From Bacteroidales bacterium (GTDB lineage: Bacteria; Bacteroidota; Bacteroidia; Bacteroidales; UBA1402), in contig JAFSRR010000104.1 of NCBI GenBank assembly GCA_017446025.1, forward strand, positions 44,026 through 108,025: DNA of 64,000 nucleotides, read 5' to 3'. A program made the translations under genes and the position numbers. Below the pieces are notes generated by a model, which was not told where the DNA came from, ran no database searches, and saw nothing but the letters and a program-made list of their open reading frames with translations. Of this stretch, positions 62,659 to 64,000 are shown one piece after another (within the stretch, counting starts at the first letter, position 1; each line of letters starts with the position of its first letter).

Positions 62659-63120
62659 ATGACTAAACAAGAAGCATTGAAAAAGTTCGCCGAACTCGGC
62701 GCCGTATGGTTTGGAAACAGTAAACAGCATTTCGCCTTCTCAGCCTACTGCCGCCTGCAGGGCTGGAGCAAGCTGGCCGACAAATGGAAGGAAGAGGCCG
62801 AGGAAGAATGGGACGAGGCCGAAGAGGTGCTGCAGCGCCTGGTCGAGCTCGGCTGCAAGCCTGCCCAGCTGCAGGAGGCCATGAAGACGGTCGAGTTTCC
62901 CTTCTACGACGATCCCAGGCAGCAGATCGAATCCGACTATCAGCCCGAGGCCGTCAGGGAGCTCAGCGAGCTGGCCGAGGCCTTCAAGGACGACTACCCC
63001 ACGCAGAAACTCATCTACAAGTGGATCGACGGCGAGAAGGACCACATGGCTTGGGAGGCCCAGTATCTCCACTATATCGACAAGCTGGGCTACGAGAATT
63101 TCCTCACGGCCATGATGTAA
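62659..63120 (+). CDS. Ferritin-like four-helix-bundle protein (bacterioferritin-like, atypical ligand set)
   Basis: 153 aa. An eye alignment to bacterioferritin pairs KLADKWKEEAEEEWDEAEEVLQRLV with [25 protein letters not shown], and WIDGEKDHMAWEAQYLHYIDKLGYENFL with [24 protein letters not shown]. One His ligand position reads Glu. Confidence 0.45.
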   Translation: MTKQEALKKFAELGAVWFGNSKQHFAFSAYCRLQGWSKLADKWKEEAEEEWDEAEEVLQRLVELGCKPAQLQEAMKTVEFPFYDDPRQQIESDYQPEAVRELSELAEAFKDDYPTQKLIYKWIDGEKDHMAWEAQYLHYIDKLGYENFLTAMM

Positions 63121-63134
63121 GGGCGAGCTGTCTT

Positions 63135-64000
63135 ATGGAGATCAAAGCAGTAAAATTCCGGAAGGACGGGTTCTATACCCAGCCTTTCGCTTTCGGCGGT
63201 GAAGAAGGCGTGGACAAGTTCGACAGGAACATCCGCTATCGCGGCAGCCTGCAGAACTATCTGATCGACACGGGCAAGGAGGTGATACTGGTCGATACGG
63301 GGCTGCCCGGGAACTTTCCCGAGGAAGTGCCCGACGAGTCGGCCCTGGCCTATACGGGCAAGGCTGTCTGCGGCTACATGGAAGCCCTGGCCGCGCTGGG
63401 CTATCGCCCCGGGCAGGTCACGAAGATCCTCCTGACCCACAGGCACAGCGACCACAGCGGCGAGCTGCGCAGCTTCCCCAATGCCCGGATCTATGTCAAT
63501 GCCGACGAGACCGGCGCGGAGGAGCTCAAGGACATCCCGAACCTGGAGCCTGTGCATTTCACCGACGGCCCCTACTATAATTTTCCCGAGAGCCAGCAGA
63601 TCGCAGAGGGCGTCTATCTGATCAAGGCCAAGGGCCATACCCGGGGCAACAGCCTCGTGATAGCTGAGAACGAAGGGCTCTTCTACATGTTCCAGGCCGA
63701 CATCACCTACGTGGACGAGGCACTGTATGAGAACAAGCTCTCCGTCGTCTTCGACGACCTCGCTGCGGCCCGCGAGACGATGGACCGCGTGCGCGAGTTC
63801 GTCCGCAACCACCCCACCGTCTATATGGGCACGCACACGCCCCAGGGCTACGAAAACCTGGAGGCCAGGCGTGTCATCGATCTGGACCGTCCCGTGCCGA
63901 CCATCCCGGCCGAAGTCGATTTTGCCGGCAGGCAGGCCAGCGGCAAGTATGTGTGCAGCATCTGCGGCTATGTGTACGACCCCGCCGAGCACGAGGGCGT
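63135..64000 (+). CDS. MBL-fold metallo-hydrolase fused to a C-terminal rubredoxin domain (3' end runs off the right edge)
   Basis: Hand translation from ATG 63135 gives [20 protein letters not shown], then [12 protein letters not shown] (the HxHxDH motif), [10 protein letters not shown] and GTHTP, ending [19 protein letters not shown] (the first rubredoxin CxxCG knuckle). It is open to the window edge and absent from the ORF track because it has no stop. Confidence 0.75.
   Translation, partial: [288 protein letters not shown]

Follow-up and report, generated by a model that had tools for sequence, protein, structure and literature searches.

An MBL-fold/rubredoxin fusion and a bacterioferritin-like protein with an altered metal site in a putative AraC-controlled operon of Bacteroidales

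The window analyzed in this study is a stretch of 64,000 nucleotides from a rumen-type member of the Bacteroidales (lineage UBA1402; positions 44,026 to 108,025 of contig JAFSRR010000104.1). Its end carries what appears to be a regulator-controlled operon of two genes, the first encoding an altered bacterioferritin-like protein and the second a lactonase-type hydrolase of the metallo-beta-lactamase (MBL) fold that is fused to a rubredoxin. The two genes were confirmed as real and occur very widely, but have not been characterised. Full-text searches of the available literature returned no publication on the fusion or the ferritin-like family, only flavodiiron papers or unrelated mentions, and the databases name the fusion just "MBL fold metallo-hydrolase" or, in the case of JGI, "glyoxylase-like metal-dependent hydrolase/rubredoxin". 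The domain architecture is already catalogued without an assigned function, and the locus is uncharacterised, as had been supposed in an initial annotation made from the letters of the window. The following features were located on the window:

61613..62515, minus strand: AraC/XylS-family regulator in its 300-amino-acid form (Pfam HTH_18/HTH_AraC; gene callers on contigs L001-L004)
62558..62594, plus strand: candidate AraC operator, formed by the 16-bp direct repeats TGTATCGTTCCGGACA (62558-62573) and TGTATTGTTTCGGACA (62579-62594), 21 bp from start to start
62618..62625, plus strand: putative Bacteroidetes-type -7 promoter box TATCTTAG (TAnnTTTG with one mismatch)
62659..63120, plus strand: ferritin-like gene, 153 amino acids (ATG at 62659, TAA at 63118-63120)
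63135..64000, plus strand: MBL-rubredoxin fusion gene, truncated by the window end after residue 288 of 313
63438-63455, plus strand: HxHxDH motif of the fusion (from the translation)
63945, plus strand: start of the rubredoxin domain, with the first CxxC at 63954-63965 (from the translation)

The fusion gene and its two domains

The fusion gene starts with an ATG 14 nt behind the stop codon of the ferritin-like gene, and its frame is open over 288 codons to the window end. The sequence THRHSDHSG, which contains the intact HxHxDH motif, occupies residues 101-109 and the first rubredoxin knuckle residues 271-283. The gene is absent from the list of open reading frames (ORFs) because it runs off the window end. 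An antisense ORF of 300 amino acids at 63090-63992 is a shadow of the fusion gene, of the kind commonly seen in high-GC DNA. The description of the second gene in the initial annotation was accurate.

The part of the gene beyond the window was obtained from related contigs. An exact-sequence look-up revealed the identical 153-amino-acid ferritin-like protein on nine contigs. Two of them, L002 and L003, show 99.9% DNA identity to the window over the overlap. On L002-L005 the same genes are present and the second gene is completed to 313 amino acids with a full C-terminal rubredoxin (full length at L002:5258-6199), so that the predicted continuation of the fusion past the window end is confirmed. 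The fusion products of these contigs are 100% matches to the L002 protein in tblastn. Furthermore, a species-level survey was carried out in a collection with one genome per species, and the best 80 loci were analyzed; 71 of these 80 loci from genomes of other species contain a full-length intact fusion ORF.

Two domains, and nothing else, were found in the protein: Pfam Lactamase_B with 50.3 bits and Rubredoxin PF00301 with 47.3 bits, the latter covering profile positions 1-47 of 47. They are connected by a linker of about 25 residues (245-270). There is no flavodoxin domain between them, in agreement with the initial annotation. The rubredoxin signature is intact (C274-xx-C277-G and C300-P-x-C303), and its four cysteines are invariant in 37 fused sequences. 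The strongest rubredoxin matches in the PDB are the short chains 6nw1 and 6rxn of 45-46 residues, which were aligned over 42 residues with E values of 1e-14 to 2e-14. Judged by signature, profile coverage and these matches, the C-terminal domain is a genuine rubredoxin. It shares CxxCG...CPxC and the aromatic core with short-loop rubredoxins such as the 46-residue chain 6rxn, but differs from them in its position C-terminal to a hydrolase-type domain and in an RCPRCKQxKxKFNxA tail. The same unusual tail is found in a free rubredoxin (57-64% identity with the fused domain) that is encoded in islands with ferritin-like, MarR and ZIP genes. The occurrence of this free rubredoxin in the same type of island suggests that the fused domain was recruited from within such islands. 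The gene for the free protein, which has 51 amino acids (L108:4214-4369; also on L110 and L111), encodes an atypical C-P-C in the first knuckle and not CxxC.

The MBL domain was compared with families of assigned function. Among the NCBIfam models that of the AiiA acyl-homoserine lactonase scores best (1.8e-18), and 4-pyridoxolactonase and further lactonases come next. In every case the score stays far under the equivalog cut-off; for the AiiA equivalog NF045699, 66.6 bits were obtained where 375 are demanded. The domain reads as a relative within the AiiA clade and not as an AiiA orthologue. When it was searched alone against the PDB sequences, the group of methyl parathion hydrolase (MPH) and dihydrocoumarin hydrolase was matched together with AiiA. 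A profile built from the fused proteins and their unfused relatives of about 250 amino acids matched AiiA with 1.8e-23 over positions 34-241, which is nearly the full chain. The sole flavodiiron protein among the matches listed for this profile was FprA (2ohh), with 5e-4 over positions 78-142, corresponding to about 65 residues round the metal motif.

The active site leads to the same assignment. Residues H102, H104, D106, H107, H168, D189 and H234 of the fusion correspond to H104, H106, D108, H109, H169, D191 and H235 of AiiA, and in the alignment to AiiA 2a7m residues D189 and Y192 fall on the bridging Asp191 and the catalytic Tyr194. The domain length of about 250 amino acids is likewise shared with AiiA. 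All eight residues, H102, H104, D106, H107, H168, D189, Y192 and H234, are invariant in the 37 fused sequences. H102, D106, H107, H168, D189 and H234 are invariant even in relatives at 28% identity, and Y192 is lost in the more distant unfused relatives. By every sequence criterion applied the MBL domain is a lactonase-type binuclear hydrolase. What distinguishes the fusion from AiiA-type and other MBL relatives (methyl parathion hydrolase, dihydrocoumarin hydrolase, 4-pyridoxolactonase) is the added C-terminal rubredoxin, which is absent from the matched solved lactonase-type chains. The fusion differs from AiiA-type lactonases also in its host, an anaerobic member of the Bacteroidales, and in the location of its gene in stress islands.

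Flavodiiron MBL domains carry an HxExDH di-iron motif and are followed by a flavodoxin (FMN) domain. With flavodiiron proteins, including NorV (MBL, flavodoxin and rubredoxin), the fusion shares the combination of MBL and rubredoxin on one polypeptide, the anaerobic host and the oxidative stress setting. It differs from them in the missing flavodoxin domain, in HxHxDH (H102-R-H104-S-D106-H107) in place of HxExDH and in the weak and partial match to FprA. Membership in the flavodiiron family was rejected on these three grounds. The analogy to flavodiiron proteins drawn in the initial annotation consequently fails: the MBL domain, with its catalytic Tyr kept, groups with ordinary lactonase-type hydrolases of the AiiA/MPH kind, an outcome which that annotation had itself named as speaking against its proposal.

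The ferritin-like protein and the control region

The product of the first gene matches Pfam Ferritin PF00210 with 46.2 bits (E 5.9e-12), over the cut-off of 24.5 bits. With the bacterioferritin (Bfr) equivalog TIGR00754 it reaches 26.9 bits, far under the cut-off of 125.55. The closest solved relatives are chains deposited as bacterioferritins (E ~1e-6), among them 3r2h, which we take to be the ferritin FtnA of P. aeruginosa. An AlphaFold2 (AF2) model, which was built on a shallow alignment, has a mean confidence score (pLDDT) of 94.1 and predicts helices at residues 3-33, 37-63, 86-93/98-108, 113-143 and 145-152. The top 50 matches of this model in a Foldseek search against the PDB are nearly all Bfr, with a TM score of 0.86 to E. 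coli Bfr and of up to 0.87 overall. As modelled, the protein has the bacterioferritin fold, a four-helix bundle with a short fifth helix, and the ferritin-like call of the initial annotation stands.

Metal ligands were mapped in an ungapped register in which residue i of the query corresponds to Bfr residue i+1; this register fits the boundaries of helices A and B. The following counterparts were obtained:

Bfr E18, ferroxidase ligand: W17, invariant in the family
Bfr Y25, near the ferroxidase site: H24, invariant in the shallow alignment and present in 17 of 18 sequences of a second alignment, the exception being Bfr itself
Bfr E51, ferroxidase ligand: E50, kept
Bfr M52, haem axial ligand: W51, invariant in 37 family members
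Bfr H54, ferroxidase ligand: E53, within EEEWDEAEE
Bfr E127, ferroxidase ligand: E126, kept
Bfr H130, ferroxidase ligand: H129, kept

The counterpart of the sixth ferroxidase ligand, E94, is E91 in the phmmer alignment and a gap in the MAFFT alignment. It is ambiguous because AF2 predicts a break in helix C at residues 94-97 (YQPE). Of the six ligands E18, E51, H54, E94, E127 and H130, three alone (E51, E127 and H130) therefore have an unchanged equivalent. The exchange of a His ligand for Glu and the missing haem Met had been recognized in the initial annotation, and both changes were found at the named positions; their extent was understated, as the change of E18 to W17 and the ambiguous E94 had gone unnoticed.

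Measured against bacterioferritins and bacterial ferritins (E. coli Bfr, the 3r2h chains, subunits of hetero-oligomeric Bfr), the protein retains the fold and the equivalents of E51, E127 and H130. It deviates in the exchanges of E18 and M52 for Trp, of H54 for Glu and of Y25 for His, in the break of helix C and in its score far under the cut-off for Bfr. On this comparison it is not a classical bacterioferritin: the ferroxidase centre reads as degenerate and the haem Met is missing. The doubt of the initial annotation whether the protein is a classical iron store was hence justified.

A second ferritin-like subtype of 148-152 amino acids, 21-41% identical to the window protein, often takes its place upstream of the MBL-rubredoxin gene in other genomes (L015:4122-4580, L046:5527-5982, L051:4731-5189, L072:3575-4030 and 9075-9530, L085:5196-5651), one locus containing two copies. 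In this subtype the position of H54 is occupied by Trp or Tyr and that of H130 by Asp, and Met52 is sometimes kept.

The divergent AraC regulator noted in the initial annotation is indeed present. Its product matches HTH_18 with 63.2 bits and HTH_AraC with 25.5 bits, and weak AraC_binding matches lie at residues 73-191 in the N-terminal half. Between its start (62515) and that of the ferritin-like gene lies a control region of 143 bp. Gene callers predicted 300 amino acids on L001-L004. An alternative ORF of 333 amino acids with a TTG start reaches 62614 and would overlap the candidate operator; the 300-amino-acid form is favoured by the position of the latter and by the gene callers. An AraC gene stands divergently upstream of a ferritin-like, PNPOx-like or MBL-rubredoxin gene in 13 loci.

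The repeats TGTATCGTTCCGGACA and TGTATTGTTTCGGACA are the sole two matches to their consensus within the window. They are identical at 14 of 16 positions, which was reached by none of 300 shuffles. A similar 21-bp-phased repeat beats shuffled controls (p<0.05) in seven of the 12 other AraC-divergent intergenic regions, and in seven of eight such regions, the window counted, 64-84 nt separate the end of the repeat from the start codon that follows. TAnnTTTG is the established -7 promoter consensus of Bacteroides and other Bacteroidetes. Each of the 12 orthologous intergenic regions contains it in exact form, at a distance of 44-117 nt ahead of the ATG. A scan for sigma-70 promoters is uninformative for Bacteroidetes. 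The corresponding box of the window, TATCTTAG, starts 23 nt past the second repeat. Dimers of AraC-family proteins commonly bind direct repeats two helical turns apart, and for this reason the 21-bp-phased repeats are interpreted as a probable AraC operator that is conserved across species. The arrangement of repeats and -7 box would be as expected for an AraC-family dimer acting as activator from a site abutting the upstream promoter element. In one species, short tandem repeats of the GGTTAGA/GGTTAGT type are present upstream of the operator repeats, between the AraC and ferritin-like genes (L085:4887-5000).

Distribution and genomic surroundings

In the one-genome-per-species scan the fusion was found at at least 574 places, mostly in metagenome-assembled genomes (MAGs) of rumen Prevotella, Bacteroidales and Bacteroidaceae. 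A protein database clustered at 90% contains more than 100 clusters of 313 amino acids with both Pfam domains and 82-100% identity. In a library of representatives at 50% identity, the best 150 matches yielded just one further fusion identified as full-length (P0241, 65% identity), and the next full-length relatives in this library are unfused proteins of 241-253 amino acids with 28-46% identity. The fusion therefore forms a shallow, tight clade.

Across species the fusion protein is about 80% identical (78-85%, in an identity band of 78-88%), while the gene spans values of 0.42 to 0.92 in its GC content at third codon positions (GC3) and its overall GC content tracks that of its flanks (r = 0.66). 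A conserved protein together with a base composition that follows the host points to a long-resident gene under strong purifying selection. The same GC data led us to reject recent horizontal spread as the sole cause of the narrow identity band, and some horizontal transfer probably took place in addition to purifying selection. Transfer between phyla has probably also occurred, as judged from copies on long contigs of Firmicutes-labelled MAGs such as L064 with 532 kb.

Copies about 80% identical were observed on contigs of up to 532 kb from MAGs labelled Ruminococcus, Oscillospiraceae, Lachnospiraceae or Bacillota (L064, L073, L071, L077, L031, L017, L051). These Firmicutes-labelled copies often adjoin a TetR regulator, and they are due either to an inter-phylum transfer or to mis-binning. 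The plasmids in PLSDB yielded no fused copy. The closest relative there is an unfused MBL protein, 45.6% identical over residues 1-250, which is encoded on the C. perfringens plasmid pNetB-NE10 (79683-80432; L099). On this plasmid of the pNetB type (necrotic-enteritis toxin) the MBL gene adjoins a MarR regulator, and a radical SAM gene is located nearby.

At the level of strains the fusion gene can be lost. The 557-kb contig L001 is 98% identical to window positions 60922-63119 and has the SusD remnant (see below), the AraC gene and the ferritin-like gene in common with it. We compared L001:10463-11130 with window positions 63121-64000 and with L002:5258-6260. On L001 a PNPOx-like gene of 132 amino acids lies between the ferritin-like gene and a remnant of the fusion gene. 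Just the first ~65 nt of the latter are left; they contain a premature TAA and are joined to the downstream intergenic DNA at the 9-bp sequence GCTTTCGGC. On L002 GCTTTCGGC is present both near the 5' end of the fusion gene and directly past its stop codon. The loss on L001 is a deletion between two copies of GCTTTCGGC. Loss of the fusion and gain of the PNPOx-like gene indicate that the fusion gene is dispensable and is exchanged like a cassette.

For a neighbourhood census, ORFs were called and clustered in the 80 loci. The following families were counted within 4 kb of the fusion (n=71):

Ferritin-like: 21/71 loci
AraC: 16/71 loci
CDF cation exporter: 13/71 loci
Glutathione peroxidase (GPx): 12/71 loci
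PNPOx-like: 11/71 loci
AlkZ-related: 9/71 loci
FMN_red (Isf-like, with Cys cluster): 9/71 loci
Flavodoxin_4: 5/71 loci
Radical SAM: 5/71 loci
MarR: 4/71 loci
TetR: 4/71 loci

Within this distance, 37 of the 71 loci have one or more genes of the ferritin-like, FMN_red, GPx, PNPOx or flavodoxin type. In 11 loci a CDF cation-efflux gene follows the fusion gene directly on the same strand, in seven of them with a gap of exactly 19 nt; loci with this downstream gene include L016, L019, L021, L027, L029, L033 and L058. This arrangement suggests a conserved two-gene transcription unit which links the fusion to metal export. Other tight partners on the same strand encode FMN_red (gaps of 21-60 nt), a flavodoxin-2x[4Fe-4S] protein, a TM1586-type nitroreductase and glutaredoxin.

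Five other members of the ferritin-like family were sampled, and the fusion adjoins none of them. The contexts observed for the family comprise MarR with GPx and PMSR; GPx with MarR and genes for flavodoxin, Fe-S, HxlR, FMN_red and AhpC proteins; MarR with a 57-amino-acid protein and a radical SAM enzyme; and MarR with free rubredoxin, a ZIP transporter and an Fe-S protein. In several genomes a small ORF of 57-83 amino acids (ending ...KKEGAIVSPVRCKW.PA) without a Pfam match follows 3-20 nt after the ferritin-like gene (L100:3466-3639, L108:3483-3734).

A role in oxidative, redox or metal stress, the first two of which the initial annotation had proposed, is backed by the recurrent neighbours: GPx, methionine sulfoxide reductase, AhpC, FMN reductase, flavodoxins, PNPOx-like proteins, free rubredoxin, CDF and ZIP. 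The part of the proposal that saw a dedicated module of three components did not hold, since co-occurrence is facultative, with a ferritin-like gene in 21 and an AraC gene in 16 of the 71 loci. AraC, ferritin-like protein and fusion are facultative parts of a mosaic redox and metal stress island common in rumen-type Bacteroidales, and not a fixed module.

At lower coordinates than the AraC gene the window contains a SusD/RagB-like ORF (60837-61619, plus strand) which is just the 3' remnant of a gene (235-260 amino acids). On L001 the DNA of this remnant is the terminal part of a SusC-SusD pair that is intact (1047 and 578 amino acids). The homology of the window to L001 sets in abruptly at 60922. 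Upstream of this point the window has, in place of the SusC-SusD sequence, a C1 peptidase gene (59361-60611, minus strand) and a tRNA-Gly(GCC) gene (59177-59252, minus strand). The abrupt start of homology together with the SusD remnant indicates a rearrangement or deletion at this position.

Possible working, alternatives and meaning

We propose the following working for the locus. When the cell is stressed by an oxidant, electrophile or metal, the AraC protein would bind the repeats and activate the operon. The ferritin-like protein would form a cage and buffer or sequester iron via a non-canonical site, built from E50, E53, E126 and H129 and possibly also H24 and E91, rather than act as a fast ferroxidase. 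The fusion would still perform hydrolysis of the lactonase/esterase type at an iron-containing binuclear site. Its rubredoxin, reduced by small flavoproteins or Fe-S proteins encoded in the neighbourhood, could serve as a built-in one-electron donor or redox switch, which keeps the binuclear site reduced and active, or gates it, when the anaerobe meets oxidants. We regard this joint package of an AraC-activated operon, an iron-buffering cage and a rubredoxin-supported iron hydrolase as about equally likely to be right or wrong.

Several points weigh against it. Sites of the HxHxDH type usually bind zinc, and a zinc hydrolase would need no electron donor. A closely related strain (L001) does without the fusion gene. 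The islands are mosaic in composition, and 34 of the 71 loci lack all of the redox genes named above within 4 kb, so that guilt by association is only moderate. The -7 box of the window deviates from TAnnTTTG at one position. The AF2 model of the fusion, computed from an alignment of 37 sequences which are all at least 82% identical to the query, has a pLDDT of 56 and therefore permits no geometric conclusion on how far the rubredoxin iron lies from the binuclear site. Data on expression, metal content or activity of the operon were not found in the literature.

Among the alternatives the best, though itself unlikely, is that the fusion is a plain lactonase or esterase, with acyl-homoserine lactones, plant lactones or xenobiotic esters as examples of substrates. 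The knuckle would then hold a zinc or iron with a function in structure or oligomerisation, and the stress neighbours would be coincidental. All catalytic features of AiiA are present, unfused relatives exist (one of them on C. perfringens pNetB plasmids), and the gene, which is dispensable in the sister strain, occurs in very many contexts, often as the first gene after a long gap. This explanation does not fit well with the full rubredoxin signature, as the domain is closer to true electron-transfer rubredoxins than to zinc ribbons and its closest relative found is a free rubredoxin from the same type of island. Moreover, judged by their raw counts, tight flavoprotein and Fe-S partners seem to recur more often than expected from coincidence.

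Ranked behind it, and to be regarded with more doubt, is a flavin-independent redox enzyme which has arisen independently from a lactonase scaffold and in which two irons reduce O2, H2O2 or NO via the fused rubredoxin. Such an enzyme would be functionally similar to flavodiiron proteins or rubrerythrin, and its rubredoxin would receive electrons from the adjacent small flavoproteins. Earlier cases of an MBL fold taken over for redox chemistry are flavodiiron proteins, ETHE1 and CmlA. The canonical, strongly conserved rubredoxin domain would agree with a further case, as would the frequent FMN_red, flavodoxin-ferredoxin, PNPOx-like or nitroreductase partners and the peroxidases nearby. However, the motif is HxHxDH and not HxExDH, a flavodoxin domain is missing, and a weak, partial match to FprA stands against a full-length match to AiiA. 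The hydrolytic Tyr and Asp of AiiA are kept and are invariant in the fused clade, and the nearest unfused relatives (46% identity, ~250 amino acids) have the same site without a redox domain. Taken further, this explanation would define a new class of flavin-free, rubredoxin-wired binuclear-iron O2/H2O2/NO reductases which, with flavoproteins and the ferritin-like cage, would constitute an oxidant defence specific to rumen Bacteroidales; for this extended form our reservations are slightly greater.

The ferritin-like protein and the rubredoxin domain might also work as a pair similar to Bfr and Bfd, the rubredoxin giving electrons to the cage for the release of stored iron. We consider this quite improbable. 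The fold is Bfr-like, 21 of the 71 loci have a ferritin-like gene no more than 4 kb from the fusion, and such a gene accompanies free rubredoxin on L108, L110 and L111. In the Bfr-Bfd system, though, haem is the electron conduit, and the haem-binding Met is replaced here (W51). None of the five other ferritin-like contexts sampled contains the MBL-rubredoxin gene, and the conserved hydrolase domain would be left unexplained. Finally, that the fusion is an artefact of the frame, with the stop before the CxxC feared in the initial annotation, of a sequencing frameshift or of a chimeric assembly is refuted to near certainty, as nothing speaks for it except that the window ends before the second CxxC, whereas the same 313-amino-acid ORF is present on four independent contigs, a full-length intact ORF at 71 of 80 loci in other genomes, and both Pfam domains in more than 100 database clusters of 313 amino acids.

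The abundance of the fusion and the constraint acting on it in a major livestock microbiome indicate that it probably does something important. The conserved, probable AraC operator offers a direct handle for finding the inducing signal. The ferritin-like family extends the oxidative stress repertoire of anaerobes by a protein of the Bfr fold whose metal site is rearranged. A genuine rubredoxin on a hydrolase-type binuclear site is a chemically odd pairing, and it points either to anaerobes that protect iron-dependent hydrolases by built-in re-reduction or to a further recruitment of the MBL fold to redox chemistry.

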